Shown here: piece by piece, positions 9,618 to 53,732 of the stretch
Numbering within the stretch: the stretch's first letter is position 1
Layout of the letters: the number at the start of each line of letters is the position of its first letter
Virus record (IMG/VR): IMGVR_UViG_3300044712_000823
Location: 1-64,000 of that record
Direction: 5' to 3' (one strand)
From: a virus
Taxonomy: Duplodnaviria; Heunggongvirae; Uroviricota; Caudoviricetes
DNA length: 64,000 nt
The notes under the pieces: model-generated
Database searches by the model: none
Seen by the model: the letters and a program-made list of their open reading frames with translations, nothing else
Told to the model about the DNA's origin: nothing
Position numbers and translations under genes: made by a program

Positions 9618-10175
9618 TTAGAAGAACTCTTTGTTTCTGTCAATTGTATCACCTTTTCTCTTGTAAAAAATATGTCGGCCAATTTTGTCAACTTTTTCCA
9701 TCTTCCAACCAGGATTAACATAGTCGGCGTGGTAGTAGGTTGCTCCATTGGTAACATCTTCCTGTTTATCGTGATTAATAACAATGTTTGTTGCTAGTTC
9801 ACGAATCTCATTATATAACTGACTGTCTTTGATTGTCAAGCGTCTATCGGTAAACTTTTTTTCACAATACCAGGAAAACTGGCACGTTCCGTTAGTTTTT
9901 TGATAAACAACATCGCAAATTGAATCGGCGTAATTTCCCGTCCGCACACGGTTAAGTGTTACAAATGCGACTGCTTTTTTACCTTCAAGCGGCTCATTTG
10001 CCGCCTCAAAATAAATGTTCTCCGCAAGGCACGTGACCTGCTTCTGTACATCTTTTGAGAGGGAATTAAAAGTTGTTTTGAATGGTAACATGGAGTCAAT
10101 ATTGAAATTAATCATACTGCCGCCTACCATAATTGCCGATAGAAGGATAGTCAGAAGTATTGGTTTACTTCTCAT
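9618..10175 (-). CDS. SleB-like cell-wall hydrolase with signal peptide.
   Basis: N-terminal signal peptide. Hydrolase_2 motifs (YFEA...AVAFVTLNRV). Confidence 0.55.
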   Translation of the reverse strand: MRSKPILLTILLSAIMVGGSMINFNIDSMLPFKTTFNSLSKDVQKQVTCLAENIYFEAANEPLEGKKAVAFVTLNRVRTGNYADSICDVVYQKTNGTCQFSWYCEKKFTDRRLTIKDSQLYNEIRELATNIVINHDKQEDVTNGATYYHADYVNPGWKMEKVDKIGRHIFYKRKGDTIDRNKEFF

Positions 10176-10364
10176 TTTTTCCTCTGTAGTTGAACAAGAT
10201 GATGGGTTATTCTGTTACGAGGAAACCCATCGAAACCCTAGTCAGCGTTTAGGCTGCCAATGCGAACTTTTCATCGTTTGCGTTTAGTTTGATTTACTTT
10301 TAACGACTATCTGTGTCGAGTTGTCCACTTCTGTACTTGTTGCCCTGTCGAAACCATGGCTGGC

Positions 10365-10478
10365 CCATCAGAAGTATACTAAACGTGGATCGTCCCTAAA
10401 TGCTTACTGAATTCTACAGTCAGCTTAGTATACTTCTGGTGGACCAGGCGGGAGTCGAACCCGCGTCCAGAACACTTT
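10365..10478 (-). ncRNA. tRNA-like 3' fragment (T-arm plus acceptor 3' half plus CCA) next to a 14-bp inverted repeat. Possible structured RNA.
   Basis: Minus-strand reading GCGGGUUCGACUCCCGCCUGGUCCACCA. No matching 5' acceptor strand. The inverted repeat is CAGAAGTATACTAA...TTAGTATACTTCTG. Confidence 0.25.
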
Positions 10479-10542
10479 TCTAGTTGCTTCATACAACCAT
10501 AGCCGCTAGTATAGCAGCTTTTTATTTAGTTGGCAAGCGTTT

Positions 10543-11685
10543 TTACCAGGGTTTTCCTGTACCGCGAAAATTACTGAAGCTTATTTGTCCGCTTGCTGGA
10601 ATCGTGATGTTTATTATCGCACTCTTCCTAACTTTACATGTATATCCTTGTGAGGACTGTGTAAGTACCTCAAAAGAATATGTTTCACCATTCACTGTGG
10701 TCGATGAGGGTGGTGGCACATTACCAGAAAGACTCAAGTTTGCAACTATATCACCGTTCCAAAAAACTTTTCCGAATGAGGTTCCTGGAGTCGTCAATGT
10801 ATCCCAGAACATACCATATGTCAACTTTCCCGATGCTGCTGATTGGAACTGGTCAATGGAACCCAACAATAAAGTGTTGGAAGAAACGGAAGATAAATTT
10901 GCAGGTAAGCTTATGGTTGAGGGTGTTACGAATGTGCCACCACGGTAATAACTGCTGACACTATATGGTTTTCCTGTATTACCGAAGATTGTCGCCAAAG
11001 TGTCTAGGTTTATTGTTGCATTATCGTCTATTCTATTTCTAAGCCAAATTATGGCCTCCATATAATTTCTAGAATCCGACGACGATTGATTGTACCTTTG
11101 TGGTAGAGGTGATTGAAGGTAATTTATTGAATAAAAATTTCCGTTTGATGAATTTGTGTAACGAGTGCCAAAGGAAGTCAGTGAGCGACTGATTGATCCT
11201 GTGTGTGAGAATACAAAAATTGAATTTGAATTTGAAAGTACAAAGTTATTTGCGGTCGAAGTCGTCGGCTCACCCATACTGAAAATAAACAAATCTCTAC
11301 ATTTCACTAATGTTTTATTTTCTATGAGACCATCTGTCGTAGAATAGACTGTAGGACACACTAATGATGCACCGGAAGGTGGAATTGCAGCTAATGCTAC
11401 AGCCGCATTGTCTGCATTGATTTGTCCAACATCTATACCTTTAGAAGCAACATTTATTAGTGTACCAACTGTTGTTCCCGGAGAACTCGGATCGAAACCG
11501 TTTGCAATCAATGCAATCGTTCCATTACCAGATGTGGTAATTATCGCACTTCTTGCATTGATAAATGTGTTCGATCTGACCAAAAAGTCACCAACAACAG
11601 TTATGTTTCCTGTTATAATAACGTCATTATTGGTTCTCAGATTGTAGTTGGTGTATGTTCCACCTGTTATGGTAGTTGTTGCCAT
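10543..11685 (-). CDS. Tail-fibre/adhesin-like protein (Ser/Thr/Asn-rich).
   Basis: Composition and repeats typical of receptor-binding fibre proteins. Confidence 0.4.
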   Translation of the reverse strand: MATTTITGGTYTNYNLRTNNDVIITGNITVVGDFLVRSNTFINARSAIITTSGNGTIALIANGFDPSSPGTTVGTLINVASKGIDVGQINADNAAVALAAIPPSGASLVCPTVYSTTDGLIENKTLVKCRDLFIFSMGEPTTSTANNFVLSNSNSIFVFSHTGSISRSLTSFGTRYTNSSNGNFYSINYLQSPLPQRYNQSSSDSRNYMEAIIWLRNRIDDNATINLDTLATIFGNTGKPYSVSSYYRGGTFVTPSTISLPANLSSVSSNTLLLGSIDQFQSAASGKLTYGMFWDTLTTPGTSFGKVFWNGDIVANLSLSGNVPPPSSTTVNGETYSFEVLTQSSQGYTCKVRKSAIINITIPASGQISFSNFRGTGKPW

Positions 11686-15771: not shown

Positions 15772-15862
15772 AAAAATCCTTTAAATAATATAAATAGGTG
15801 TGGATCACGGTACGCCAATACCCATCCACTCTATGTCCATATTCTATAACAGGAGACACAGC

Positions 15863-16507
15863 TTGTCAAGTATATATACAACGAAAAGAAAAAGAAGAAC
15901 CGTAAATTACCGCAAAATTTACGAACAACATTTTGGTCCAATTCCTTATGATGAATTTGGAAGAAGATATGAAATACATCATATTGATGGCAATCCAAAT
16001 AACAACGACATAAAAAATCTTAAATGTGTTTCAATAAAAGAACATTATGAAATACATTATAAACAAAAAGATTGGGGTGCTTGTTTATTAATTGCGAGAG
16101 CGATGGAAATTACACCAGAAGAAAAGAGAACCTTAGGTAGACTTGCGGCGATTAAGCGTTTAGAAGAAGGTAGCCACAATTTTCTGAATAATGATTCAAA
16201 CGAAAATAGAGTTAAAGCAGGAACACACAATTTTCTTGGTGGTGAAATAGGTGGAAGAACAAGCCGCAGGCGAGTAAAAGAAGGAACTCACATACTTTTA
16301 GGTGGTGAAGTTCAGAGAAAACAATTACTTGACGGTAAAAATAAACTTGTTGGCGGTGAATTGCAACGAGAAAGTGCTAAGAAATTATTGCAGGAAGGTA
16401 GACACCATTCACAAAAAGTGAATGAATGTCCACACTGCAATAGAGAAATTTTAGGTAATGGATTTTATCGCTATCACGGCGATAGATGTAAGTTCAAGAA
16501 AGATTAA
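15863..16507 (+). CDS. HNH homing endonuclease. Proposed TTG start after AGGAG.
   Basis: HHIDGNPNNNDIKNL. Leader shared with the GIY-YIG gene at ~20.9 kb. The ORF track extends to 15800. Confidence 0.65.
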   Translation: MSSIYTTKRKRRTVNYRKIYEQHFGPIPYDEFGRRYEIHHIDGNPNNNDIKNLKCVSIKEHYEIHYKQKDWGACLLIARAMEITPEEKRTLGRLAAIKRLEEGSHNFLNNDSNENRVKAGTHNFLGGEIGGRTSRRRVKEGTHILLGGEVQRKQLLDGKNKLVGGELQRESAKKLLQEGRHHSQKVNECPHCNREILGNGFYRYHGDRCKFKKD

Positions 16508-16968
16508 TCAATTCTTTCCTTGTATTGACGAATGGGTGTGTATGGGAAAGTGATAGGAACTGCACTATCACCATTAGTGAAATACGATTTGTATTTTTTA
16601 CCGGTTTCTTTATCTGTGTACCAATCATAAAAAATAATTCCTTCAGAATCATATGCTTGGCCATTGAATCTGTCAGCCTGTTTGAATATGTGACTGCATC
16701 GTTTATTTTGCATACAGTAGCCGTGGTCTACCCACTCCCAATCTTCACCAGTCAGTGGTGTAATAGGCTCAAACTTGGCCAACTTTTCAAACAAATTAAT
16801 AGCATATGGTGCAGTGGATCCAGAATGTCCTTCTTCGTCAAATATTTCAATCAACTTCAATACATGTTTGCAGATCATCTCCTGCATTTCATCATCGAAT
16901 TTTCCATTCTCGTCAGTCCAACCTGCGGCTCTAAATTCAGCCTCTGCATGTTTAATTAAATTACTCAT
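16504..16968 (-). CDS. Hypothetical protein.
   Basis: ORF. Confidence 0.35.
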   Translation of the reverse strand: MSNLIKHAEAEFRAAGWTDENGKFDDEMQEMICKHVLKLIEIFDEEGHSGSTAPYAINLFEKLAKFEPITPLTGEDWEWVDHGYCMQNKRCSHIFKQADRFNGQAYDSEGIIFYDWYTDKETGKKYKSYFTNGDSAVPITFPYTPIRQYKERID

Positions 16969-20874: not shown

Positions 20875-20969
20875 AATTTTTCTCCAGAGTAAATAAATAA
20901 AAGGTGCCAGTCACGATGCGTCAACATCCACTGGCTCTATGTCTAAGATTTTACAACAGGAGACACAGC

Positions 20970-21509
20970 TTGTCAAGTATATATTCAACAAAATTTTATG
21001 TCTATGCCTACCTGCGTGAAAACGGTACACCTTATTACATCGGTAAAGGTACCGGCAAAAGAGCATGGAGACACTTTAAAAAAGAAATAAAACCACCGAA
21101 AGATAAAAGTAAAATAGTCATATTGGAAAATAATTTGACTGAAATTGGTGCCTTTGCATTAGAAAGGAGATATATTTTTTGGTATGGCAGAAAAGATAAA
21201 AATACTGGCATACTGAGAAATAAAACTGACGGCGGTGACGGTGCTTCTGGTAGAAAATTTAAAATGACAGAAGAACAAAAAAGAAAAATATCCAACGCCA
21301 AAAAAGGTAAAATACCACCATGCATTTTTATCCGGCGTTCATATGAAAATTCCGGAAACCCAAAATCCAAAAAATGTATATCACCTGATGGAAGAGTTTT
21401 TGATTGTGCTAAAGAAGCCGCAATTCAAATGAATATTGGTGTCAAGGCATTACAAAAAAGATGTAGAAATGGTGCAATGGGTTGGTCATATGTAATTGAA
21501 AACAACTAA
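20970..21509 (+). CDS. GIY-YIG homing endonuclease. Proposed TTG start after AGGAG.
   Basis: FYVYAYL...YYIGKGTGKRAWRH motif. The ORF track begins at a GTG at 20904. In-frame ATG at 20916. Confidence 0.65.
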   Translation: MSSIYSTKFYVYAYLRENGTPYYIGKGTGKRAWRHFKKEIKPPKDKSKIVILENNLTEIGAFALERRYIFWYGRKDKNTGILRNKTDGGDGASGRKFKMTEEQKRKISNAKKGKIPPCIFIRRSYENSGNPKSKKCISPDGRVFDCAKEAAIQMNIGVKALQKRCRNGAMGWSYVIENN

Positions 21510-22141: not shown

Positions 22142-22771
22142 CTAAAATGACCATCCACGTTTAAGAAATTTGTCTGTGCGGAACCGATTCGGTTCAACAT
22201 AACCAGTTTTCACCAATTTTTTGTTGTGAATTGCATCCATCTGTGCAACAGAAATATGAAATTTGTCGGTCATTAGATCGTAATATGGCAGACAATGCAC
22301 AAAGTCAAAAGTTTTTCTCATTGACTCATAATCTGCAATGGTAATAAACTGTGCTTTGTTTTTCATGGTGATTGCATTTGCAGTAATTATTTTGCCTAAG
22401 ACACCGGCATCTTGACCACCATAGTTGTCTTTATAATCCGCAATGAAATCACTATATCTCGTGGGAAATATTTTTGCTGAAAAATTTGCATCTTCCGGTG
22501 TTTTAAACCAAAAGTCATAATCGTTTACAGGTTCATCGTGATACAAAGAAGAAATACTTGAACCAGACAATACACATCTTAGTCGTGTATGTTCAACCAA
22601 ATCTACAGGCATCCGACTTGGCTGTGAAATGTATACTGCATTAAAAAGAACTTGAATGTGATGTTTGATTTTGTCTTTCAAAAATAATGCATTATCTTTA
22701 AAATTATCAATTAACATAATTGTATTGTATGTGTCGTTTACATTCATTGACCGAGTGACATTTGTGACCAT
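22142..22771 (-). CDS. Hypothetical protein.
   Basis: ORF. Confidence 0.4.
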   Translation of the reverse strand: MVTNVTRSMNVNDTYNTIMLIDNFKDNALFLKDKIKHHIQVLFNAVYISQPSRMPVDLVEHTRLRCVLSGSSISSLYHDEPVNDYDFWFKTPEDANFSAKIFPTRYSDFIADYKDNYGGQDAGVLGKIITANAITMKNKAQFITIADYESMRKTFDFVHCLPYYDLMTDKFHISVAQMDAIHNKKLVKTGYVEPNRFRTDKFLKRGWSF

Positions 22772-22993: not shown

Positions 22994-23191
22994 TCAATTT
23001 TCGTTTAGGATTTTCCTAAACTTTTCAAACTCATCTTTTTCCAGGAAGAATTCAAACTTTTTATGCAGACCATCGGGATCTTTAGCACCAGAAAAATTGG
23101 TCAAAAATACCACATGCTTCATACCACGTACATCTTGAACATTCAAGAAATATTTGTAGATAGCATTATCACGAGAAATCAAATTCATCAT
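22994..23191 (-). CDS. Hypothetical protein.
   Basis: ORF. Confidence 0.3.
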   Translation of the reverse strand: MMNLISRDNAIYKYFLNVQDVRGMKHVVFLTNFSGAKDPDGLHKKFEFFLEKDEFEKFRKILNEN

Positions 23192-24348
23192 ACAAAACCC
23201 ATCTTTCTTTCAATTGAATTTTTCAGTTCACGGGTATTACGCTTTTCTTTCTCAAAGAAAATATCCGCAATAGACCACTTGTCACGCTGACCATTCAGTT
23301 TAGTTCCAACTTTTACAGCCAGTTTCTCTGCCTGTTCTTGGTTCAGTTCCTTGAAATGCACAATGTCATAACAACGACCAGGACGCACCAATGCAGGATC
23401 AATATCATTGATAGACGGCAGGTTAGTTGAGAAGATAAGTTTCTTGTTGCGTGTAGTCACAAGACCGTCACCAACATTCAGAAACTTATGCATCATCGTA
23501 TTGCCCTCTTTACGTGCCTTCAGAAACATATCTGCATCCTCAAGCACCATCATAGATTTATCACCTTCGATAAACTGTGCGAACACATAATCTTTCTCCA
23601 AAACTGCTGCATCATAAGATACAATAGCAGAAGATTCCGTATGTTGCAGCATACCACGAATGAACGTGGTTTTACCAGTACCTGGCGGTCCAATCAGAAG
23701 AAGAATAGATGCATTCGACTTCATAAAATCATCATAGTAATCTGCGAGAGATTGACCATTGAGGAACGGATACATTTCTTCCACGGGCATACGCTCATGT
23801 TGTAGCGGAATCTCAATAGATGCACCATCATTTGAATACAGCCATTCGATATGGTTAGTAACGAATTGGAAATTCTCAGTGAAAAGAGATTGATATTCAT
23901 CACCAAATTCTTTATCACCAGTCAGTGTGATATTGATATGCGTAGAATGAATGCGATACTGCAACCAATTCATTCCAACATCATCGAACAGATAGCCGGT
24001 GTCCCTACCCACCTGGACGATACGGAGGTCATGTTGCAGAACAGGAAGAAACTCCACCCATTCCTTGTGTGTACAATAGATTCCAAAATCACGTGTGAAA
24101 GTTTCCAGGTTTGCAGAATTACGTGCCTCTAGAATCTTAGATTGAAAGAGATCCGTAATATCAGACAGACCAAGGAAAATTTCATTTTGTGCTTTGTTCA
24201 TAAAGTCATAACCTCTCAAAGTATAATGTTTCAGCATTTTTCGTTTTGTGTTTTTTCGCACACGAACACGCCGGCGAGTAGTTCGGTAACCATCGAGTGC
24301 AATTGCTGCATTGATCCTACGTATAATTGATTGTGCGTTTTCGCTCAT
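23188..24348 (-). CDS. AAA+ ATPase.
   Basis: Walker A (LLIGPPGTGKTT). Walker B (MMVLEDAD). Sensor region. Confidence 0.65.
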   Translation of the reverse strand: MSENAQSIIRRINAAIALDGYRTTRRRVRVRKNTKRKMLKHYTLRGYDFMNKAQNEIFLGLSDITDLFQSKILEARNSANLETFTRDFGIYCTHKEWVEFLPVLQHDLRIVQVGRDTGYLFDDVGMNWLQYRIHSTHINITLTGDKEFGDEYQSLFTENFQFVTNHIEWLYSNDGASIEIPLQHERMPVEEMYPFLNGQSLADYYDDFMKSNASILLLIGPPGTGKTTFIRGMLQHTESSAIVSYDAAVLEKDYVFAQFIEGDKSMMVLEDADMFLKARKEGNTMMHKFLNVGDGLVTTRNKKLIFSTNLPSINDIDPALVRPGRCYDIVHFKELNQEQAEKLAVKVGTKLNGQRDKWSIADIFFEKEKRNTRELKNSIERKMGFV

Positions 24349-25121
24349 TTTTTCGTTTTTAACTTTGTCAAAATTCTAGAATCAATGGCACCAATATTGT
24401 TTAAATCCTTATCTGTATAATCATTTTTCATCAGAACATACTGCATTGCTGCAATACGTGCGGATCGTTTACAGTCAGATTTTACTTGAACCCATGGGCA
24501 CATGGCAATAGAAGTTTCTCGGAACATACGTTCTTTGGCTTCTGTGTACTCATCCCATAAAGTTTGACTCGCTTTATCCACCGGGCTCAGTTTTCCAGTT
24601 TTAAGTGGATGTTTATCTCTTTGTTCAAATCTTCTGTTTTGTTCATCCCGTGTTACGGAAAACCAAAACTTAATGATGTTAATGTTTGCTTCAACCCAAA
24701 TCTTTTCAAGCTTAGGACATTCTTTGTAGAATTGGTTCGTTTGTTCTGGTGTACAGAAACCCATAACAGGCTCAACGCCTGCACGGTTATACCACGACCT
24801 ATCCCAGAAGGTGATTTCACCTGCACGTGGAAATTGATTGATATAACGCTGCCAATACCATTCTTGTTTCTCCAATTCAGTGGGTTTATCCAACGCAACG
24901 ACACGTGCGCCGCGAGGATTAATGTGTTCCATGAATCTTTTGATTGTGCCACCTTTACCTGCGGCATCACGACCTTCGAAAATAACTATGTGTTGGCTTT
25001 TGGTTTCTCGCACATGGTTTTGCCATTTGAGTAATTCAATTTGAAGCAGATACTTCTTACTTTCATACTCTTTTGTTGGCATCACCACGCGACCAGAATC
25101 TTCAAACTCAATTTTTTCCAT
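24345..25121 (-). CDS. Polyphosphate kinase 2 (PPK2).
   Basis: FEGRDAAGKGG Walker A and PPK2 lid motifs. Confidence 0.8.
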   Translation of the reverse strand: MEKIEFEDSGRVVMPTKEYESKKYLLQIELLKWQNHVRETKSQHIVIFEGRDAAGKGGTIKRFMEHINPRGARVVALDKPTELEKQEWYWQRYINQFPRAGEITFWDRSWYNRAGVEPVMGFCTPEQTNQFYKECPKLEKIWVEANINIIKFWFSVTRDEQNRRFEQRDKHPLKTGKLSPVDKASQTLWDEYTEAKERMFRETSIAMCPWVQVKSDCKRSARIAAMQYVLMKNDYTDKDLNNIGAIDSRILTKLKTKK

Positions 25122-25302
25122 CTAACATAAACTTCTTTAGATAATCTTCGACTTGTTCGAACTTTTCCATTGTAGACAATTTATCTTCAATCGCATACAT
25201 TGGATCCAACGTCAGAGTTACATTCAGTAGCGGATGATCCTTTGCACGAATTGTGATTGTATATGGTTTATTTTTCTTTTCCATCTTTTTGGCCCTTTGC
25301 AT
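25108..25302 (-). CDS. Hypothetical small protein.
   Basis: ORF. Confidence 0.3.
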   Translation of the reverse strand: MQRAKKMEKKNKPYTITIRAKDHPLLNVTLTLDPMYAIEDKLSTMEKFEQVEDYLKKFMLDGKN

Positions 25303-25711
25303 TTTTGGATGCAGAGTTTATACCTTCTTCGATATAAGAATCTAGCTTTTGTTCGATCAGTGTCAGAACTTTTTTACCAGTTTCTTGCACCTTTTCATTC
25401 TCTGAAACCTTTTGTGTTGCATATGCACCAACCATAATATATGCAGTTTTTTCGGAAGGAATAAAAATATTAAGAATGGCGGCGACAATAGCCGTGATAC
25501 CAATACGCCGAATTACTTTGTCTAGATTCGACCGTTTTTCGGTTTTATCTTTAATAGTTCTCTCTGAATCCCAACTATTAATGCTCAATTCAATTGAACG
25601 ATACAATAACATGAATATTATTGACATTCCGCCGACCATCATAGTTGAGCCGAGCGTGAATGTCAATGGCGTCAGCAGAGAAATGCCATAAACAAGTAGA
25701 GCCAGATCCAT
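25268..25711 (-). CDS. Membrane protein (partner of SPFH protein?).
   Basis: Multiple TM helices. Downstream of the SPFH gene. Confidence 0.4.
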   Translation of the reverse strand: MDLALLVYGISLLTPLTFTLGSTMMVGGMSIIFMLLYRSIELSINSWDSERTIKDKTEKRSNLDKVIRRIGITAIVAAILNIFIPSEKTAYIMVGAYATQKVSENEKVQETGKKVLTLIEQKLDSYIEEGINSASKNAKGQKDGKEK

Positions 25712-25712
25712 T

Positions 25713-26507
25713 TTATTTCGGCATCATCAGTGCGTTGAAGTTGGCAGGCACAACAATTGTCTGTACTTTACCAGCTTTAATACCTTCGGAGATATTAATC
25801 ATAGCTTGTGCCTGCATGTAAGCAATACTCTGTGCACCTTGATTACTCAGTGCCTGCATACGCTCTGCTTCCATCTTAGCAGTTTTAACTTCAACTTCTT
25901 TTTGCTTCAATTCGTTTTTAGCACGAACCAAATCATTAGCACTAGCAACAACACTGTCGGCAGGAACAATATTACGAATCAACACTTGACTAACAGTCAA
26001 GCTACCATCAAGTTTTTCATCAGTCAACGACTTTTGAATCTGTTCCCGAACAGCTTGTTCCATTGCTTGGCGACTGTCTGCCATATCCAATGCTTCATAC
26101 TTTCGCGCTTCTTTGTAGATAGCATTGCGAGCATTCTGCACAATATAGTTATACATCAAGTAGATATCACCATTGTGTCGAGCATGAAATGCCTGACTCT
26201 TGGTACTATACAGCTCCGCAACCTGTGATTGATTAATATTATAGATAACAACCGCATCGAAATCTTTCATTGTGCTATTATCTTTAGCAACAGGCGTCAT
26301 GTCGTCCAGTTTAACATTAACGTCTTTGATGGGAAAAGTTAGAACATCACCAATCATCGTCTGATTAAACGAACCAGGCAGAAGTTCACCAGATTGAACC
26401 TGCTTATCAAAACCAACACGTACACCAACTTCACCAGTTTCAATGCGGGTGCATCCCGTGGCAAGTACACCGGCGGCAACAAGAACTGACAGACTAAAAC
26501 GTTTCAT
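25713..26507 (-). CDS. SPFH/band-7 (prohibitin/HflC-like) lipoprotein.
   Basis: Start set at MKRFSL (GGAG RBS). Lipobox LATGC. SPFH domain plus coiled coil. Confidence 0.7.
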   Translation of the reverse strand: MKRFSLSVLVAAGVLATGCTRIETGEVGVRVGFDKQVQSGELLPGSFNQTMIGDVLTFPIKDVNVKLDDMTPVAKDNSTMKDFDAVVIYNINQSQVAELYSTKSQAFHARHNGDIYLMYNYIVQNARNAIYKEARKYEALDMADSRQAMEQAVREQIQKSLTDEKLDGSLTVSQVLIRNIVPADSVVASANDLVRAKNELKQKEVEVKTAKMEAERMQALSNQGAQSIAYMQAQAMINISEGIKAGKVQTIVVPANFNALMMPK

Positions 26508-26696: not shown

Positions 26697-27083
26697 TTAT
26701 ACGCTTACAGCTTCCGTGGAGACCTCTTGTTCGGTGTTAACCTGTGCAGCGGGTGCTGGGGCTTGCACAACAGGTGCAGCCGTTTGTTTACCAACGTATC
26801 GACCGTCATCATTGAATTCATCAACATTCACTAACTGGTATGCAGTAACTTTGCGACCTTCTTTGTGTACCTTGATAATGCCACCATCCTTGCGGATGTT
26901 ATAGATGTTTGTACTCAAACGATACAGTACGCCTTCTTGATCTGTTCCCTTAAAGACGGCTGCAATGTCATCGGGAGAAACGGGACGACCGCATTTCAGA
27001 ATAGCTGCAATTTTTTCGTGGCGATTGATTTTAGTGTTTGTACGCATAATATATTTCCTTTTCAAAAAGATTACCAGATTCAA
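26697..27083 (-). CDS. Putative DNA-binding protein.
   Basis: Winged-helix-like N-terminus. Pro/Ala linker. Confidence 0.35.
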   Translation of the reverse strand: MNLVIFLKRKYIMRTNTKINRHEKIAAILKCGRPVSPDDIAAVFKGTDQEGVLYRLSTNIYNIRKDGGIIKVHKEGRKVTAYQLVNVDEFNDDGRYVGKQTAAPVVQAPAPAAQVNTEQEVSTEAVSV

Positions 27084-27117
27084 TTATAAAGCAGTGGCTG
27101 TCTGGTGTCAACCATTG

Positions 27118-41191: not shown

Positions 41192-41728
41192 TTAAACTCC
41201 GATATACTTAGATGCTTCAGCATGAAGACCACGGTCGCCTTTTGTCATAACTTCGAGGAGAAGCCTTTTCTCGGCGAGATAAGTCTTGGCAAACCCAGGA
41301 TCATACTGCATAATAGATTTACTATTAGAGATAAGATCAGCAAGTTTAATTGTCTGAGCTTCAGCAGGTGCATCCGCAGTATGAGCACGATCAATTGCTT
41401 TACGGTGTGCCCTATTACCGTCTTCAGGGCGACTTACATCAGTGAGCCAACCAACAAGGCGAGCAATATCAATACCAAACGCCATATGAATATCATTAAA
41501 TGTGCAACCAGTATCTTCGACAACATCATGGAGCCATGCAGCAGCAACCATCTCATGCGTAGAACCAGGAACAGAAGCCACAATACTAGCCACCTCAGCA
41601 GGGTGAACAATATAAGATTCACCTGTATATTTACGCTTTTGACCGACAGCAGCATGAGCCGCCATTGCATATACTTGCGCCTTTTGTACAATATCCATAC
41701 CAGTAAGTTCCATTGTAAAGCATTGCAT
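41192..41728 (-). CDS. HD-domain (p)ppGpp hydrolase (SpoT/Mesh1-like small alarmone hydrolase). Start uncertain.
   Basis: YIVHPAEVA...AAWLHDVVEDTG matches the RelA/SpoT HD motif. Confidence 0.65.
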   Translation of the reverse strand: MQCFTMELTGMDIVQKAQVYAMAAHAAVGQKRKYTGESYIVHPAEVASIVASVPGSTHEMVAAAWLHDVVEDTGCTFNDIHMAFGIDIARLVGWLTDVSRPEDGNRAHRKAIDRAHTADAPAEAQTIKLADLISNSKSIMQYDPGFAKTYLAEKRLLLEVMTKGDRGLHAEASKYIGV

Positions 41729-42163: not shown

Positions 42164-42546
42164 TGTAGAGCAATAGTAGTCCATAGAAGAGGTCAACTAT
42201 TGTCCAGTGTATGGGAATGCATGGGGAAGAACCAGGAATGGAATAGGAGATGATTGAAACCAAAGGTAGTAACCAGTGTAGCAAGAACCATGCGTGGATT
42301 GAAAATGAAAGTGCTATTTATTGCGTGCCTACCGTGCGTTGTCGCGGGACCTGTCGCAGGTATGGTGTAGCACCTTAGTCTTAGTTGCTGTCTGCGAGCC
42401 AGGTTTTTCCTCAACCAGCCACTCTATCACAATCCACAGCGGTTGGCAATAGGTTTCCTCTCAGAACCTCAGAGAACCATAGAGCCAGGCTATAGCATAG
42501 TGGATTTCCGACCAATAGCAAAGTAAATTTTCTTTCACCCAGCTGG

Positions 42547-42576
42547 TTGCCAAACACCAGTGCCATGTGATATAAT
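42547..42576 (+). promoter_or_regulatory. Early promoter family copy P6 (TTGCCA-18-TGaTATAAT), plus strand. Points into an ORF-poor region.
   Basis: TTGCCAaacaccagtgccatgtgaTATAAT. Confidence 0.45.
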
Positions 42577-42682
42577 GGACCAAACGTCTTCCGCTGGCGG
42601 TAGTACCTTAGTGTTACACGGTATATAACGTGCAGCCTCCACGTCCATCCCCGTGTATTGCCGTTCGAATCATTGTAGTGGA

Positions 42683-42709
42683 TTATACCAGAACCGAACG
42701 GACTGGCAA
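42683..42709 (-). promoter_or_regulatory. Early promoter family copy P7 (TTGCCA-16-TATAAT), minus strand. Points into the ORF-poor region 42.2–42.65 kb.
   Basis: Minus-strand reading TTGCCAgtccgttcggttctggTATAAT. Confidence 0.5.
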
Positions 42710-42744
42710 GTAGAGCAAAAGTTCTCTACCTGCCAGGTGGGTCA

Positions 42745-42969
42745 TTAGTCTAGCAGGACCATGTACTCCGCTGGGAAGTGGGTGCGGAACCAGTCCAGAC
42801 CCTTGCGGACGGTCTTGTAGTCTCCGAACATCTCCGAGCCACGGATGGTGTCATACACTGCCACGGCGTCAGGAGGTAGGGTCACCGACTCACCAGAGAA
42901 GGGATTGGACACCAGCACCGGTGCATCGTCCAGGATTTTGCAGGGAAAGGGAAGGGTGCGAACGTTCAT
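42745..42969 (-). CDS. Hypothetical protein (GC-rich island).
   Basis: AGGAG RBS. GC-rich codon usage. Confidence 0.45.
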   Translation of the reverse strand: MNVRTLPFPCKILDDAPVLVSNPFSGESVTLPPDAVAVYDTIRGSEMFGDYKTVRKGLDWFRTHFPAEYMVLLD

Positions 42970-42980
42970 ATTTTACTCCT

Positions 42981-43508
42981 TTATTGAACCACGTTGAAAG
43001 GACCTTTGCGGTCATATTTTTTGGTGAAGAATGCCTCCACCTTGTCAGCGGTAGGACGGAATGCCTCAGCCTTGCCACCGTACCAGCCTTCGAAGCCACC
43101 ACGGTCAGGACGCGCCACGATGGTGAAGTCCTCATACTTGAGCTTGACCTTCTTGGGAGCCTTCGGTGCTTTGGGTGCCTTGGGCTCCTTGGCCACCTTT
43201 GCAGGCTTGGTTGTCGGTTTTGCCACCGAGGGCGTTTCCGGGACAGCCTGAGGTTGGACCTGACCTTTGAGGTGAGGCATGATGGCTTGGAGCCGCTCCA
43301 CGTTGGATTGTGCATACTTGACCAGGTCCTCACCGGTCAGCCCTTTGGACGTACCTTGTACAATGTAGTCGGCGAACAGGTGAGCCTCAGCCTTGTCCTT
43401 CGGTTTGACACCGACGGACTTTGCAATGCGGAAGTGGTCGGCAGGCTTCAGGGTTTTGAGGTACTTGACCAGCTGGTCGGCAGAGGTGAAGGTGGTTTGG
43501 ATTTCCAT
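42981..43508 (-). CDS. Hypothetical protein with KAPKAPKAPK linker.
   Basis: Start at MEIQ, downstream of the P8 transcription start. Lys/Ala/Pro-rich linker. Confidence 0.45.
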   Translation of the reverse strand: MEIQTTFTSADQLVKYLKTLKPADHFRIAKSVGVKPKDKAEAHLFADYIVQGTSKGLTGEDLVKYAQSNVERLQAIMPHLKGQVQPQAVPETPSVAKPTTKPAKVAKEPKAPKAPKAPKKVKLKYEDFTIVARPDRGGFEGWYGGKAEAFRPTADKVEAFFTKKYDRKGPFNVVQ

Positions 43509-43531
43509 GTGAGTTACTTTCGAATGAGTCA

Positions 43532-43560
43532 ATTATACCAGAATTTTCAAGCCGTGGCAA
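43532..43560 (-). promoter_or_regulatory. Early promoter family copy P8 (TTGCCA-17-TATAAT).
   Basis: Minus-strand reading TTGCCAcggcttgaaaattctggTATAAT. Confidence 0.5.
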
Positions 43561-44200
43561 CCGTCAGGCGGATAATTTTCGCCATCTTACGACCGTGGGC
43601 GGGGTAGCCGATGACCGCCACGGACTTATCGTAGCAGGTACGGCAGGTCAGGCACTTGCCACCTTGGTTGTATGCTGGGCAGACGGAAACACCACCGGGC
43701 GCGTTTTCCGCGTCGGGAATGATGGTAGAGCCATGCACGCCAGGCGTATAGGAACCATCCACGGCATCGGAAGAGAACCGAACCATTACATTGTCCAGCC
43801 GTTGCATGGCTGCAATGATGGGGGCAAACTTGGGGAATTTTGCCATGCGGGTGGGCAGCCAATGCTTGGTGTTGGGCGTACGGACCATCACCTGGTAGAT
43901 TTTGGTTGCCAATTCCAGGGAGTACATATCCCCCGAATCGAACCAACGGAAGTGGGTGTCCTTGCTCAATTGAGCCACCATGGCGTCAACCCAGCCGTCC
44001 TCTTGCCATGCGGCTTTATTGTCAGCACGGACAGCCTTGACGGCGCCGAAGTGGTACATGCCCGTGGTGGCGTAGCAACCAGAGCAGGCCGCAACCAGTT
44101 GGCCGTCCTTGCCAACCGAACCGGGGCAGGTCTCAATGGCTTGGAGGGACCAGGACTTGGTGCCTAGCTTGGAGGTCTTGGAGAGTTTGTTTTTCATCAT
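43547..44200 (-). CDS. Cys-rich metal-binding protein.
   Basis: Two Cys clusters (CPGS...CSGCY and CPAYNQGGKCLTCRTCY). Confidence 0.45.
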   Translation of the reverse strand: MMKNKLSKTSKLGTKSWSLQAIETCPGSVGKDGQLVAACSGCYATTGMYHFGAVKAVRADNKAAWQEDGWVDAMVAQLSKDTHFRWFDSGDMYSLELATKIYQVMVRTPNTKHWLPTRMAKFPKFAPIIAAMQRLDNVMVRFSSDAVDGSYTPGVHGSTIIPDAENAPGGVSVCPAYNQGGKCLTCRTCYDKSVAVIGYPAHGRKMAKIIRLTVATA

Positions 44201-44247
44201 GTGGTGTATTCTACAGGTTTCCTAGGTTCTGTCAACCAGTCCTTGGA

Positions 44248-44553
44248 TTAGTTGACCGGATTGGTGGGTTTCACCGTCACCGTCCAGCTGGAGAAGGAGA
44301 GACCGACCATGGTGTAACCATGGGCTGCCAGTGCCTTGATTAGGCGCTTGGCGATAATGTTAGCCATGGCGTTCTCCGCTTCGGTGCGGTTGATTGACGG
44401 CTCATGCAGGTGCATATCACCGGCATCCTCGCAGGTGAAAGGTACAACCAGCACCTCGCCCTGGTAGGCGTCCTTGTACGGCTTAGCCGCTTTGAAAAGA
44501 ATTGCGTTTTTCATGTGATGGAGTATACCACAACCGAAGGGAATGGCAACCAA
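44248..44553 (-). CDS. Hypothetical protein. May start at 44514 (MKNAILF).
   Basis: Two tandem upstream promoters (P9, P10). Confidence 0.4.
   Translation of the reverse strand: MVAIPFGCGILHHMKNAILFKAAKPYKDAYQGEVLVVPFTCEDAGDMHLHEPSINRTEAENAMANIIAKRLIKALAAHGYTMVGLSFSSWTVTVKPTNPVN
44522..44549 (-). promoter_or_regulatory. Early promoter family copy P9 (TTGCCA-16-TATACT).
   Basis: Minus-strand reading TTGCCAttcccttcggttgtggTATACT. Confidence 0.45.
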
Positions 44554-44648
44554 CCGATCATTGGAATTTCCTATTGATCCTGCGGACCCATAGTTGCGGT
44601 TCTAACGCCCAGCCTCCACGTCCATCCCAGTGCCTTTCGAATGGTCCT

Positions 44649-44676
44649 ATTATACCAGAACCGAGGACCCCGGCAA
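44649..44676 (-). promoter_or_regulatory. Early promoter family copy P10 (TTGCCG-16-TATAAT).
   Basis: Minus-strand reading TTGCCGgggtcctcggttctggTATAAT. Confidence 0.45.
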
Positions 44677-44716
44677 CCAATACCCTACCGCTCCGCTGGA
44701 GAACTATAGTTCTACA

Positions 44717-44744
44717 TTGCCATTTCCTCCGGTTCTGTCATAAT
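44717..44744 (+). promoter_or_regulatory. Early promoter family copy P11 (TTGCCA-16-CATAAT).
   Basis: TTGCCAtttcctccggttctgtCATAAT. ATG 8 nt downstream (leaderless). Confidence 0.5.
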
Positions 44745-44751
44745 CCACTCC

Positions 44752-44949
44752 ATGATGAATAGCAAAACAAAACCCTATACCGAATCCGTTGCAACCCGTC
44801 TCCCCGCTGGCCTGACCAGTGAAAAGGACCTGTGGACTGAAATCTACAAAATCGTGGAAGCCGACCTCGGCAAGAAAAGAGCATTCTACATGATGAACTA
44901 CAGTGAGGACTTCTTTCCTGATGTAATGCACGACTACAAATACCTGTAA
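44752..44949 (+). CDS. Small protein (65 aa); likely leaderless mRNA.
   Basis: Starts ~8 nt after the -10 of P11. Confidence 0.4.
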   Translation: MMNSKTKPYTESVATRLPAGLTSEKDLWTEIYKIVEADLGKKRAFYMMNYSEDFFPDVMHDYKYL

Positions 44950-44974
44950 ACTCTTGAAAACGAAAGGTTACAAA

Positions 44975-45187
44975 ATGAATCGCATTAGCCAAAATGGTTG
45001 GACTCTCCGCCGCTCCAACAACCAGCCGGTGCTGGTGAATCAGGCAGCCATAAGCTTCCGTGGTGACATAGCCACCATTGTGGGTGGACGCCCTCCTACC
45101 CACTTTGGTTCAACCGGTAGGGTCTGGACCAAGGCTGGTGGGGAATACTTCCCTTCGGTCTTTGACCTTGAGTGGGTGAAAGACTAA
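44975..45187 (+). CDS. Small protein (70 aa).
   Basis: AAAGG-8-ATG. The ORF track extends to a TTG at 44954. Confidence 0.4.
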   Translation: MNRISQNGWTLRRSNNQPVLVNQAAISFRGDIATIVGGRPPTHFGSTGRVWTKAGGEYFPSVFDLEWVKD

Positions 45188-45215
45188 CCAATCCGGTCAA
45201 CTATCCGACGGATGG

Positions 45216-45243
45216 TTGCCAAATCCTCCAGACCTGTCATAAT
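45216..45243 (+). promoter_or_regulatory. Early promoter family copy P13 (TTGCCA-16-CATAAT).
   Basis: GGTTGCCAaatcctccagacctgtCATAATCC. Almost identical to P14 and P15. Confidence 0.55.
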
Positions 45244-45281
45244 CCATTCCATAGTAAATCAACAAAGCAAAGGAAACAAAA

Positions 45282-45509
45282 ATGTCTCAAGGCTACAATG
45301 GCTGGACCAACCGCGAAACCTGGTTGGTTAACGTTTGGTTCAATCCGGAATCCCGTGAGGATGTGGAGGATGCACGGTCCATCCTGGAGGAACAATATGA
45401 TTCCATGACCGATGGTCCCCTGAAGGACATGGTTGCCCTGTCCGAGGTGGACTGGGACCAGCTGCTGGAACACTTCGAAGAGGAAGAGGATGAGGAGGAC
45501 GAGGAATGA
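45282..45509 (+). CDS. Small acidic protein with poly-Glu/Asp C-terminal tail. Candidate DNA-mimic-like early protein.
   Basis: NGWTNRETWLVNVW N-terminus. C-terminus EEEEDEEDEE. AAAGGAAAC RBS. Confidence 0.45.
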   Translation: MSQGYNGWTNRETWLVNVWFNPESREDVEDARSILEEQYDSMTDGPLKDMVALSEVDWDQLLEHFEEEEDEEDEE

Positions 45510-45718
45510 GCGTAGTCCGTAACCGGTTGCCCGGTTCAACCGGGTCCATAACCGAGCATTGGACCTCGGAATCACCGCAAGCCATCCAGGACCTGTTCCA
45601 GCAGGAGGTGACCAACTATCCTACAGGTGGTTATGGCACCATGCTCACCGGCATCCATGCCGATCCGACCGGTCTCCTATGGCATGCCAGGTTCTATCGC
45701 ATGGCATCTTGCGATTGA
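45506..45718 (+). CDS. Small protein (70 aa).
   Basis: ATGA overlap with the upstream gene. Confidence 0.4.
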   Translation: MSVVRNRLPGSTGSITEHWTSESPQAIQDLFQQEVTNYPTGGYGTMLTGIHADPTGLLWHARFYRMASCD

Positions 45719-45738
45719 AAATTCCAATGGCAACATTC

Positions 45739-45766
45739 TTGCCATTTCCTCCAGCCCTGTCATAAT
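45739..45766 (+). promoter_or_regulatory. Early promoter family copy P12.
   Basis: TTGCCAtttcctccagccctgtCATAAT. Confidence 0.5.
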
Positions 45767-45803
45767 CCATTCCATAGTAAATCAACCGCTGAAAGGAAAG
45801 CAG

Positions 45804-45998
45804 ATGAGTGTAATCGACAACCTGATTCTGGACATCCAGAAGGACATTACCGAAGGTCGCCTGACCTTCCGTGAAATCGCCGACCTGCGCGGCATCCCGT
45901 TTGACTGGGTGGATATGGTTGCTCTGGAGATGGCTCGCCAAGGTGAGGATGATCCGGAATACCTGGACTCTGACGCATACCTGGAGACGCTGGAATGA
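45804..45998 (+). CDS. Small acidic protein (64 aa).
   Basis: AAAGGAAAG RBS. The ORF track start at 45627 runs through promoter P12. Confidence 0.4.
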   Translation: MSVIDNLILDIQKDITEGRLTFREIADLRGIPFDWVDMVALEMARQGEDDPEYLDSDAYLETLE

Positions 45999-46156
45999 AC
46001 CGCTACACCTTGATCCTTTCCAACGGTCGGATCATGGTTTTCTCGGTGCTGGCCTGCGCTGAGGTCTTCCAGCAGGCCCACGGTGGAACGCTGGTAACCC
46101 AGCAAACCGGTCAAGAATCCAAGGAACAGTTGCCAAATCTTCCAGTCCTGTCATAA
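45995..46156 (+). CDS. Small hydrophobic protein (53 aa); reads through promoter P14.
   Basis: ATGA overlap. Hand-translated. Confidence 0.25.
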   Translation: MNRYTLILSNGRIMVFSVLACAEVFQQAHGGTLVTQQTGQESKEQLPNLPVLS

Positions 46157-46157
46157 T
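46130..46157 (+). promoter_or_regulatory. Early promoter family copy P14.
   Basis: TTGCCAaatcttccagtcctgtCATAAT. Confidence 0.5.
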
Positions 46158-46189
46158 CCATTCCATAGTAAATCACTGAGGACGACCAA

Positions 46190-46450
46190 ATGCTCAAAAT
46201 GATCTGGAATGACAAATCCCTCCTGACCATGACCGGCATCGCCGTGGCTCTGGTTGTGGCTGCCGTGGCTGCAACCATTTACAATGGCAACCAGTGGAAG
46301 GAATTCAGCCAGGAACATGAGTGCAAGGTGGTTGCCAAGCATGCCGGTACCACTGGCTATGGTATGACCAGCACCGGTAAGATGGGCATGGTCACCACTT
46401 CCGCAACCACTTCCTACCTTTGCAACGATGGTGTGACCTATACCCGTTAA
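46190..46450 (+). CDS. Small membrane protein (86 aa).
   Basis: One TM helix. RBS GAGGA. Confidence 0.45.
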   Translation: MLKMIWNDKSLLTMTGIAVALVVAAVAATIYNGNQWKEFSQEHECKVVAKHAGTTGYGMTSTGKMGMVTTSATTSYLCNDGVTYTR

Positions 46451-46481
46451 CCCAGACTTCCGGTCAACTATTCCCAGATGG

Positions 46482-46509
46482 TTGCCAAATCCTCCAGACC
46501 TGTCATAAT
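46482..46509 (+). promoter_or_regulatory. Early promoter family copy P15.
   Basis: TTGCCAaatcctccagacctgtCATAAT. Confidence 0.55.
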
Positions 46510-46546
46510 CCATTCCATGATGAAAAACGAAACGAAAGGAAACCAG

Positions 46547-46813
46547 ATGACTTACACCCCCGCCCAAGCGGCTGCCCTCCGTCACGCTGAAGTGACCCTG
46601 ACTCGCATGGCTCAGGAAGCCGCCCTCCGCTACGCCGAGGCTCTGGTCAAGTACCATGCCACCCGTCGCTTCGAAAAGTCTGAGGTGGCCTCTGAGCGCC
46701 AGATGGCACGGGATGCATGGACCATGGTCCTCATCACTGCTGAGGATGTGAACCAAGCCGCTGAGTGCCAGGCTCAGCTCACCGGCAACCAAATTGTGAA
46801 GGAGCTTGCATAA
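46547..46813 (+). CDS. Small alpha-helical protein (88 aa). Alternative leaderless start at 46517.
   Basis: AAAGGAAACCAG-ATG. Confidence 0.4.
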   Translation: MTYTPAQAAALRHAEVTLTRMAQEAALRYAEALVKYHATRRFEKSEVASERQMARDAWTMVLITAEDVNQAAECQAQLTGNQIVKELA

Positions 46814-46896
46814 TGAAAACTTTCGCAGTAGAACTGATCCAGGCAGCCATCCTGGCCACCCTTTTCTTCGGTCCCCTCTTCCTCTACATCCTCTGA
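46813..46896 (+). CDS. Hydrophobic micro-protein (27 aa).
   Basis: GAAGGAG-8-ATG. Single TM. Confidence 0.3.
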   Translation: MKTFAVELIQAAILATLFFGPLFLYIL

Positions 46897-46907
46897 AAGG
46901 TACTACC

Positions 46908-47117
46908 ATGGCAGCAACAGTCATTCCGGTTAAGGTCACGGACCGTAGGGTCCAGGAGCAATATGTGGTGGATGGTGCTCTGGTTACAATTTGCAAGCCA
47001 GCCAAGGCTCGGAAGTCGGAGAGGACTTGGAGAGGTGGCAGTAAGTGGTCAGTGGCTGGCTTGGGTGGTAAGGCACTGAGCCTGCGGAATGGCGGGCTGG
47101 CTAAGGCTAAAGGCTAA
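46908..47117 (+). CDS. Small basic protein (69 aa).
   Basis: GAAAGG-7-ATG. Confidence 0.4.
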   Translation: MAATVIPVKVTDRRVQEQYVVDGALVTICKPAKARKSERTWRGGSKWSVAGLGGKALSLRNGGLAKAKG

Positions 47118-47131
47118 GCCTAACACATTGG

Positions 47132-47160
47132 TACTAAAATTTGGACGGCAGTGTCCAAAA
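47132..47160 (-). terminator. Putative minus-strand terminator.
   Basis: UUGGAC-N6-GUCCAA hairpin followed by AUUUUAG. Confidence 0.35.
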
Positions 47161-47260
47161 ATTAAACCAATGTAAGTAATTTTCGCCTATGGCCCAAACT
47201 CGATTTTTCTGTTTTTTATTTTCTGGGGCCAAAACGCATTTTTCGAAATTTAGCACACCT

Positions 47261-47749
47261 CTAAATTTTTTCTCCGGACTCCAGCAGGTTTTCGAATTTT
47301 CCTGGAGGACTCTCCTGCGTATACTTTACATTGTTTAGCACGGGTCTGCCGTTCTCTGTCTTTCTGCACCACGGTATGTCTGTACGTACCACATAGGTCC
47401 ACTTATTGTAGTGCTGCATGAAGCTAATCATGTGCTGCGTACCTCTGGACTCTCCATCCCAAAATGCAATGAGTCCGTCTGCATAGACACCCATCTCTGC
47501 ATTCCGCATAGGACCCGCTTTCTTACCGTGGCGCTTCCAGTCGGCAGGAAAGAGCTTGACTGGAATGTTGCGCTCCTCTGCCCAACGTTCACCCAAGGAG
47601 TCAGCGCCTGCTGCACGGCCAGAAACAACCTCAGTAATGTGCAACCACGGTGGTATCGTTGCAAGGTAAGCCCTCAAATAATCATAATCATTAAAATCTC
47701 TGGATCCTGCAATGATTACTCTGCTCCGGCTGCTGCTTCTGCTGCTCAT
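47261..47749 (-). CDS. SLOG-superfamily (DprA/LOG-like) Rossmann nucleotide-binding protein.
   Basis: IIAGSRDF...VVSGRAAGAD...WDGESRGT motifs. Confidence 0.45.
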   Translation of the reverse strand: MSSRSSSRSRVIIAGSRDFNDYDYLRAYLATIPPWLHITEVVSGRAAGADSLGERWAEERNIPVKLFPADWKRHGKKAGPMRNAEMGVYADGLIAFWDGESRGTQHMISFMQHYNKWTYVVRTDIPWCRKTENGRPVLNNVKYTQESPPGKFENLLESGEKI

Positions 47750-47943: not shown

Positions 47944-48034
47944 AGTCTCGGAGGCGCGGGGAGCGGGGAGTTCGCTCCGCTCAAAACTGTTAGTTAAGTT
48001 TCGCTAGTATAACACACAGGATGGAAAAGGCAAG

Positions 48035-53664: not shown

Positions 53665-53732
53665 AAGGTTTTCTCCACAAGTTTTACTATTATAACTCAG
53701 GAGAAAACCAATGTCAACAAGTTGTTGTTTTT

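Follow-up and report, generated by a model that had tools for sequence, protein, structure and literature searches.

Probable independent accessory units, among them a class I polyphosphate kinase 2 and an SPFH lipoprotein cassette, in the early region of an uncultured T4-like phage

T4-like phages have hyperplastic early regions, in which many small early genes, sigma-70-type promoters and homing endonucleases are found beside rIIA/rIIB and genes are rapidly gained and lost between relatives. A region of the same kind is present in the IMG/VR virus record IMGVR_UViG_3300044712_000823, of which positions 1 to 64,000 (the window) were analysed. The window belongs to an uncultured T4-like phage and also codes for NrdA, NrdB, a primase and rIIA/rIIB; a near-identity DNA search of GenBank phages, with the gene cluster and with a 24-kb stretch, gave no match. 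Its early cargo, comprising genes for a polyphosphate kinase 2 (PPK2), an SPFH cassette, an AAA ATPase and a Gad2-like protein, differs from that of T4 itself. An earlier note, made from the DNA sequence alone, had grouped PPK2 and AAA with a membrane protein (mem147) and SPFH in one functionally linked cluster. Comparison with related loci suggests instead, at a probability of roughly 80%, that these are independent accessory units adjoining in a plastic early region downstream of rIIA-rIIB-CobS, and not a four-gene system.

Each component has described counterparts. Phage SPFH lipoproteins of the family phrog_200, known from Kuttervirus/Vi01-like phages, Acinetobacter T4-like phages, Erwinia phage phiEa2809 and Synechococcus phage BUCT-ZZ01, resemble the window protein in their Band_7 domain, the lipobox at the N-terminus, their size (about 260 aa) and a small two-helix open reading frame (ORF) directly upstream, and their genomic position varies between lineages. 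The bacterial HflK/C-FtsH cage and QmcA/YbbK with NfeD YbbJ also combine an SPFH domain and a helical C-terminus with an adjacent gene for a small membrane protein. Characterised class I PPK2s, namely FtPPK2 of Francisella tularensis (4YEG/5LL0), P. aeruginosa PA0141 (TIGR03707) and S. meliloti SMc02148 (3CZQ), have, like the window enzyme, a single PPK2 domain with Walker A and B motifs, an Asn and a lid; the class residue after Walker B is Asn in class I, Gly in class II and Glu in class III (PMC8776046). For the AAA ATPase, the classical AAA proteins compared were FtsH/i-AAA, BCS1, Msp1/ATAD1, Trip13, Cdc48 D2 and Rpt6.

Distribution, order and packing of the genes

The four co-oriented ORFs proposed earlier were recovered with exactly the same ends, on the minus strand, where the order of transcription is SPFH (264 aa, 26507-25713), mem147 (147 aa, 25711-25268), PPK2 (258 aa, 25121-24345) and AAA (386 aa, 24348-23188). 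The protein identities also held, with matches to PF03976 and TIGR03707 for PPK2, PF00004 for AAA, Band_7 plus a lipobox for SPFH, and two to three hydrophobic helices for mem147. The combination had been called unusual, and the four-gene set was found nowhere else, as would be expected of a fortuitous juxtaposition. Across about 150 related loci, PPK2, AAA, SPFH and mem147 are distributed independently, which does not bear out the proposed functional linkage. Within 5 kb of 80 SPFH loci (the best 80 of 372 IMG/VR relatives, 77-94% identical), PPK2 and mem147 never occurred (0/80 each) and AAA occurred once (1/80). Around PPK2, AAA, SPFH and mem147 were all missing within 7 kb in 16 IMG/VR loci (0/16), and SPFH and mem147 were never adjacent in 7 further annotated contexts; PPK2 was in turn missing from 23 IMG/VR AAA loci (0/23). 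When the neighbours of AAA were clustered in 26 loci with a recovered upstream ORF, window included, PPK2 was the upstream neighbour in 3. Among GenBank phages, PPK2 matched 15 of 50,697 records and SPFH 190, and the organism tallies barely overlap. The earlier note had itself held that its proposal would fall if the genes were unrelated in other phages, and PPK2-SPFH co-occurrence is absent from the loci examined. One Logan contig (L053) was rejected as an independent context, being 100% identical to the window.

Besides the window, PPK2 is kept directly upstream of AAA only in two related T4-like lineages, L004/L005 and L049. The first is the closer (identities to the window of 86% for PPK2, 82% for rIIB and 81% for CobS), with the order rIIA-rIIB-CobS-homing endonuclease-p128-90 aa-161 aa-mem147-Nlig-Ia-PPK2-AAA, in which p128 is a 128-aa gene. 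The position of SPFH in L004 is filled by unrelated genes; the 161-aa gene in this slot was considered as a diverged SPFH and rejected. In L049 (PPK2 78%, AAA 67% identical), PPK2 is again followed by AAA and mem147 lies 1.5 kb upstream. No Band_7 gene was present in the stretch read of L004 or L049. In L011, SPFH, mem147 and AAA are scattered over 7 kb in a different order, without PPK2.

The adjacency of PPK2 and AAA in three related lineages, with a different gene upstream of PPK2 in each (the Nlig-Ia gene in L004, a 155-aa gene in L049), could indicate a functional pair, in which PPK2 supplies nucleoside triphosphates (NTPs) to AAA or is remodelled by it and the membrane genes are bystanders. 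At the junction the two genes overlap by 4 nt in the window and by 1 nt in L004, and 51 nt separate them in L049. Such a pairing is quite unlikely, however. Of the 26 AAA loci scored, 23 have no PPK2, at least four other phage backbones carry PPK2 with no AAA gene, and the three cases are explained by a single ancestral insertion with inherited synteny. AAA has also diverged much faster (53-67% identity, against 78-86% for PPK2), which does not suggest co-evolution. Read as an independent unit, PPK2 would have arrived next to AAA, on its upstream side, through a single insertion that predates the split of the three lineages. The Nlig-Ia gene of L004 (7757-8020; PF22745, E 1.6e-24) is a stand-alone 87-aa domain that overlaps the start of PPK2; Nlig-Ia is the NAD+-binding N-terminal domain of DNA ligase.

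Overlapping start and stop codons had also been claimed for the cluster. They are present at the PPK2/AAA junction, which shares an ATGA, but not at the others, where 1 nt separates the SPFH stop from the mem147 start and 146 nt lie between mem147 and PPK2. The earlier note had overlooked three small ORFs: sm58 upstream of SPFH, sm64 (64 aa, 25302-25108, minus strand), which bridges the 146-nt gap and overlaps both neighbours, and p65 (65 aa, 23191-22994, minus strand), which shares an ATGA with AAA and has homologues after AAA in L004/L005, L010 and L209. Overlap is the local norm, found in 13 of 21 same-strand neighbour pairs among the genes called for the identical contig L053, and so says little about function. 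The ORF sm64 was called as a gene on that contig, no Shine-Dalgarno sequence was found for it, and no homologue was present in any fetched locus. It was also compared with the genes upstream of PPK2 in related phages and showed no similarity to them, being unrelated to the Nlig-Ia gene of L004; this orphan may not be a real gene.

The packing and co-orientation of the genes would fit a single operon in which NTP regeneration by PPK2 feeds AAA at a microdomain formed by SPFH and a membrane partner; no terminator-like site on the coding strand lies between the genes, and an ATPase could in principle draw on ATP that PPK2 regenerates nearby. Such an operon is nonetheless highly improbable. No other locus examined has the four genes together, SPFH is missing from this place in the closest relatives, the conserved partner of SPFH is sm58 and not mem147, overlapping start and stop codons are the rule in this genome, AAA has no predicted membrane segment, and a strong promoter-like site separates SPFH from PPK2. 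This site (TTGACA-17-TATGAT, 11/12; 25638..25666, minus strand) lies inside the 5' part of mem147, upstream of PPK2, and could plausibly start a separate sm64-PPK2-AAA transcript. A perfect TTGACA-17-TATAAT (27083..27111, minus strand) stands upstream of p128 and hence of the sm58/SPFH run, and a weaker site with an extended -10 (26587-26559, minus strand) stands upstream of SPFH. That attractive domains are encoded close together and in one orientation in a phage genome does not show that they form a system, and the comparison gives a clear-cut answer here.

Several points weigh against independent units. Co-occurrence was scored within 5-10 kb flanks rather than whole genomes, and retrieval of the loci by exact peptide patterns is biased towards close relatives. 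The promoters are consensus matches only, the cluster holds no terminator-like site on its coding strand, and the six co-oriented, packed ORFs may be co-transcribed, which would allow a lineage-specific functional link. The PPK2/AAA junction was kept in three lineages while the upstream neighbours turned over. The analysis shows the gene identities, the integrity of the motifs and the co-occurrence counts; the roles proposed for the units, together with their cellular location and the in vivo direction of the PPK2 reaction, are inferences.

The SPFH lipoprotein and its upstream partner

The SPFH protein matched Band_7 (PF01145) over profile positions 2-175 of 176 (E 4.4e-18; 66.4 bits, cut-off 23.6) and the phrog_200 'lipoprotein' family with E 5.6e-33. 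A signal-peptide-like N-terminus carries the lipobox LATGC (26451-26465; a pattern match), which ends at Cys19 and is followed by a Thr at +2. Among 82 homologues the lipobox is present in 75, with ATGC in 65, and Thr at +2 in 73. The C-terminus is helical and rich in Ala, Glu, Lys and Gln at residues about 190-240, and no sequence match to solved SPFH structures was obtained. The protein is only 25-46% identical to phrog_200 members from cultured phages; the relatives at 77-94% are all uncultured.

The earlier note had SPFH acting with a downstream membrane partner. The conserved neighbour lies upstream: the downstream genes fall into 29 unrelated clusters across the 80 loci and are never mem147, while an ORF ends just upstream of SPFH in all 80, with a modal length of 58 aa (53/80), two hydrophobic segments in 73/80 and homology to sm58 in 69/80. 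In the window, the 58-aa two-helix ORF sm58 (26695-26519, minus strand) is spaced 11 nt from SPFH, and a GGAG Shine-Dalgarno sequence stands 6 nt before the SPFH ATG at 26507. The sm58 family is marked by a conserved loop, R.LTGKE.W.L.K, and a VVLF end, and the window member is 34% identical to the L011 ORF (E 2e-7). No Pfam family was found for sm58, and identities as NfeD, as an Imm-type exclusion protein or as a DUF2065-type protein were rejected for lack of a consistent Pfam match among 13 members.

The arrangement extends to distant lineages (SPFH identity 25-46%), in which a small two-helix hairpin is encoded directly upstream of SPFH in 6 of 7. The ORF has 58 aa in Synechococcus phage BUCT-ZZ01, 53 aa in Synechococcus phage S-CREM1, 69 aa in Kuttervirus SilasIsHot (gp55), 90 aa in Acinetobacter phage AbTZA1 and 92 aa in Acinetobacter phage phiAB441; the exception is AM24, where the 86-aa product is soluble. 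In Erwinia phage phiEa2809 (NC_027340), the published annotation has a 650-nt gap where the counterpart of sm58 sits, a 64-aa two-helix ORF (locus L217, 1801-1995) that is unannotated and overlaps the SPFH start. The conserved unit is therefore the two-gene cassette of sm58 and SPFH. Kuttervirus, Acinetobacter T4-like phages and a large number of uncultured phages commonly encode SPFH lipoproteins, nearly always with a tiny, sometimes unannotated two-helix ORF, and the two offer a defined two-protein unit for the study of viral SPFH scaffolds.

Compared with the bacterial SPFH assemblies, the phage protein would be anchored by lipid, as judged from the lipobox pattern, and not by a transmembrane helix. 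In contrast to the NfeD partners, sm58 is a 58-aa hairpin that lacks both the NfeD and the OB domain; Pfam searches with sm58 and with mem147 gave no match to NfeD or to another family. Membership of the window SPFH in the HflK/C or QmcA/YbbK families is not supported. The SPFH domain of HflK/C is periplasmic, and the same orientation may apply in the phage: SPFH would be exported and lipid-anchored and would oligomerise on the periplasmic face of a membrane, with the sm58 hairpin in the inner membrane. The job of the cassette at the envelope could be membrane stabilisation, superinfection exclusion or lysis timing. For the SPFH unit alone, an envelope role of the kind the earlier note had in mind (exclusion, membrane remodelling) is possible. 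In Kuttervirus, a 'superinfection exclusion protein' gene lies one gene upstream of the hairpin-SPFH pair (PMC3220722), an association only.

The SPFH cassette or its position is found between RNA ligase and NAD-salvage genes in BUCT-ZZ01 (L001), L011 and L049, the latter genes being a NadM-like NMNAT/NUDIX gene and one for nicotinamide phosphoribosyltransferase; this suggests that the cassette moves between two accessory regions. BUCT-ZZ01 was also considered as carrying the same module minus PPK2 and rejected, since the genes downstream of its SPFH encode an RNA ligase and a kinase-like protein with no similarity to the window.

The membrane protein mem147 has hydrophobic segments at residues 3-36 and 66-85, amounting to two or three helices, and a charged C-terminal tail, and it matched phrog_3878 with E 3.6e-25. 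Homologues are present in L004 (55%), L049 (45%) and L011 (43%), none of them adjoining SPFH, and in the structural region of Acinetobacter phage AP22, a phage without SPFH; in phiAB441 the homologue is four genes from SPFH. It is an orphan of the lineage backbone, presumably located in the inner membrane, and not an SPFH partner, and would form a second unit with the doubtful sm64.

The polyphosphate kinase 2 and the AAA ATPase

The earlier note had named absence of the PPK2 motifs on a profile search as fatal to its proposal; the motifs are intact. The protein matched PF03976 (E 3.7e-83; 279.1 bits, cut-off 22.3) and the TIGR03707 equivalog (NCBIfam, PA0141-type; 327.9 bits, cut-off 301.8), and its nearest matches are the class I enzymes of Francisella (5LL0/4YEG, E 1e-87) and S. 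meliloti. In the alignment, Walker A (GRDAAGKG, residues 50-57, 24951-24974) and the Walker B DRS (residues 107-109) are the same as in FtPPK2. The run DRSWYN at 24786-24803 joins Walker B to the class I Asn112, and the lid (RRFEQR...KLSPVD, 24576-24635) is complete. By these features the window protein is a class I PPK2. It differs from the characterised class I enzymes in being phage-encoded and a compact 258 aa, with no N-terminal extension, and no PHROG family matched it.

Relatives at 65-86% identity are carried by many metagenomic contigs, whereas bacterial and archaeal PPK2s reach at most 61% identity to the window protein in a scan of one genome per species. In a neighbour-joining tree without bootstrap, 17 of 19 unique viral PPK2s group in a single clade that includes no bacterial sequence; they are on average 72% identical to one another, and the maximum to 79 bacterial sequences is 61%. 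Unlike the bacterial class I enzymes, this clade was found only on viral contigs. The two viral sequences outside it come from a 55% contig and from an unannotated part of the Moraxella Mcat6 record. The settings of PPK2 in other phages are varied: it follows UvsY-UvsW and precedes the gp47/gp46 nuclease in other T4-like phages, and elsewhere it adjoins PolA, an SNF2 helicase and VRR_NUC, or a D5/PriCT primase.

The reaction of the relatives offers a guide to function. FtPPK2 phosphorylates purine but not pyrimidine nucleoside diphosphates (NDPs) (PMC4748334), and FtPPK2 and PA0141-type enzymes favour polyphosphate-driven NDP phosphorylation, by 75-fold in the case of PA0141 (PMC8776046). From the class I features, this kinetic preference and the replication-gene neighbours in other phages, PPK2 most likely regenerates purine NTPs from polyphosphate early in infection. 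ADP, GDP and possibly deoxynucleoside diphosphates (dNDPs) would be turned into triphosphates at the expense of host polyphosphate, and phage transcription and replication would be helped to proceed without reliance on host energy metabolism. NrdA and NrdB, encoded in the window, make dNDPs, and T4 is not known to have an NDP kinase of its own; action of PPK2 on the dNDPs from the phage NrdAB is possibly an attractive extension, for which the purine preference of FtPPK2 counsels caution.

The enzyme might also work in the synthetic direction, building or reshaping host polyphosphate as a phosphate store. Surveys of auxiliary metabolic genes list virus ppk2 under polyphosphate accumulation (PMC13188868, PMC9636769), and the class I PPK2 of C. 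glutamicum and PA2428 favour polyphosphate synthesis under certain conditions (PMC8776046). This role is unlikely, however, given the opposite preference of the nearest characterised relatives, the replication and recombination genes that adjoin PPK2 in other phages, and the little gain that phosphate storage would bring to a lytic T4-like phage. No literature on the function of phage-encoded PPK2 was found beyond these survey lists, and a 2022 review of PPK2 does not mention phages. The virus enzymes, until now known only from such surveys, include a distinct, well-conserved phage-borne class I clade, whose usual replication-gene setting points to nucleotide or energy supply and not to phosphorus storage. 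The novelty of the locus is modest and lies in this clade and in the pairing of sm58 with SPFH.

A bolder and rather doubtful idea is that the phage PPK2 lineage, present in at least four unrelated backbones, taps host polyphosphate as emergency high-energy phosphate. Here a few genes separate PPK2 from rIIA/rIIB upstream of it, and its neighbours include genes that resemble counter-defence genes. If the idea is true, PPK2 would keep the synthesis of ATP and GTP, perhaps of deoxynucleoside triphosphates, running when host energy metabolism fails, for example when an abortive-infection response of the type countered by rII proteins depolarises the membrane, and polyphosphate would be something for which phage and host compete in their conflict.

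A 178-aa protein with an HD_4 domain (RelA/SpoT-type hydrolase) is encoded elsewhere in the window (41192-41728, minus strand; E 6.5e-15) and, from its domain, may be a small alarmone hydrolase. It could bear on polyphosphate, since the polyphosphatase Ppx is inhibited by (p)ppGpp (PMC4748334).

The AAA ATPase matched PF00004 with E 1.5e-10 and belongs to phrog_14322, a phage-only family (2,549 database matches). It has Walker A (GPPGTGKT, 23668-23691), sensor 1 (STN, 23422-23430) and a second region of homology with Arg fingers (RPGR, 23374-23385). Walker B (MMVLED, 23536-23553) has the order Glu-Asp where hhhhDE is canonical, and this order is invariant in 40 homologues. A canonical aromatic pore loop 1 was not found, its place being a gap in HMMER alignments to both Cdc48 and Rpt6. 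Residues 11-61 are predicted to be disordered and residues ~64-181 form an alpha+beta N-domain, which, folded alone, gave a confident model resembling only generic KA1/Med20/TBP-like alpha+beta domains; it did not match the BCS1-specific domain, and no membrane segment was predicted in the protein. AAA is a classical-clade ATPase, presumably cytoplasmic and probably unable to thread substrates by way of a canonical pore, and it differs from the classical AAA proteins named above in its lack of the canonical pore loop 1, its family-specific N-domain and its short lid. As a fourth unit, often followed by p65, AAA would be a widespread backbone gene. Its upstream neighbour is a gp44-like clamp-loader gene in 11 of the 26 loci, and the downstream gene in 13 is probably gp62-like. 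An AAA homologue between gp44-like and gp62-like genes stands inside the clamp-loader operon, an odd place for an unrelated ATPase.

The surrounding early region

The units lie in a region whose backbone consists of rIIA/rIIB, the CobS-like gene, p128, mem147, AAA, p65 and the Gad2-like gene, while the cargo changes: the window has sm58 and SPFH, three lineages have PPK2, and L004 has homing endonucleases and the Nlig-Ia gene. All of these genes in the window are on the minus strand, beginning with rIIA (31528-29330), rIIB (29328-28330), the CobS-like AAA_5 ATPase (28311-27118) and p128 (27083-26697). Downstream of p65 lies the Gad2-like gene (22142-22771, minus strand; anti-Gabija family, PF26128, from precomputed Pfam on L053 and L004), which marks the neighbourhood as accessory or counter-defence. 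A Tad3-like (anti-Thoeris) gene is found further downstream (16504-16968, minus strand; precomputed Pfam, L053), and genes for MazG, a 2OG-Fe(II) oxygenase and a resolvase are near these two.

With Gad2-like and Tad3-like genes just downstream and rIIA/rIIB just upstream, the locus might be a counter-defence island in which PPK2, AAA and/or the sm58-SPFH cassette neutralise host immunity, for example by sustaining ATP and GTP when abortive-infection effectors collapse the membrane potential, or by protecting the membrane. The fast turnover of the region between relatives and the exclusion gene near the Kuttervirus hairpin-SPFH pair would fit. The argument is guilt by association only, however: the four genes have no homology to any known defence or anti-defence protein, PADLOC defence models gave only weak P-loop-level matches to the proteins, and PPK2 is not known to be able to reverse the known nucleotide-destroying effectors. 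An island of this kind is rather unlikely, and independent accessory units remain the preferred account.

In the window as a whole, 14 sites on the minus strand and 1 on the plus strand match the sigma-70-type consensus at 11 or more of 12 positions, with about 2 expected in shuffles; perfect 12/12 sites are at 53717, 27111 and 9839. The strand bias is consistent with T4-type early promoters and a long early transcription region. Two plus-strand ORFs stand among the minus-strand genes, at 15800-16507 (HNH_3) and 20904-21509 (a GIY...YIG-type motif by eye). At their 5' ends, a stretch of ~105 nt (15782-15887 and 20890-20993) is 79% identical between the two. Both ORFs probably encode homing endonucleases and share an element at or upstream of the 5' end.

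A 5.5-kb island at 42400-48000 has 50-57% GC, against 35-42% in the genome, and holds only short ORFs. At least two of its minus-strand genes are real, a GP88-like gene (43547-44200) and a YAcAr/SLOG gene (47261-47749). The island was considered as a large non-coding RNA and rejected, with no Rfam match even at E 0.1 and with Pfam domains in some of its ORFs; it looks like a horizontally acquired block. A transfer-messenger RNA (tmRNA) is encoded at 10158-10550 on the minus strand. According to ARAGORN it is of the permuted (two-piece) type and has the tag ANDEKFALAA, and its Rfam matches are to betaproteobacterial tmRNA (136 bits) and permuted tmRNA (127 bits), which may hint at a betaproteobacterial host.

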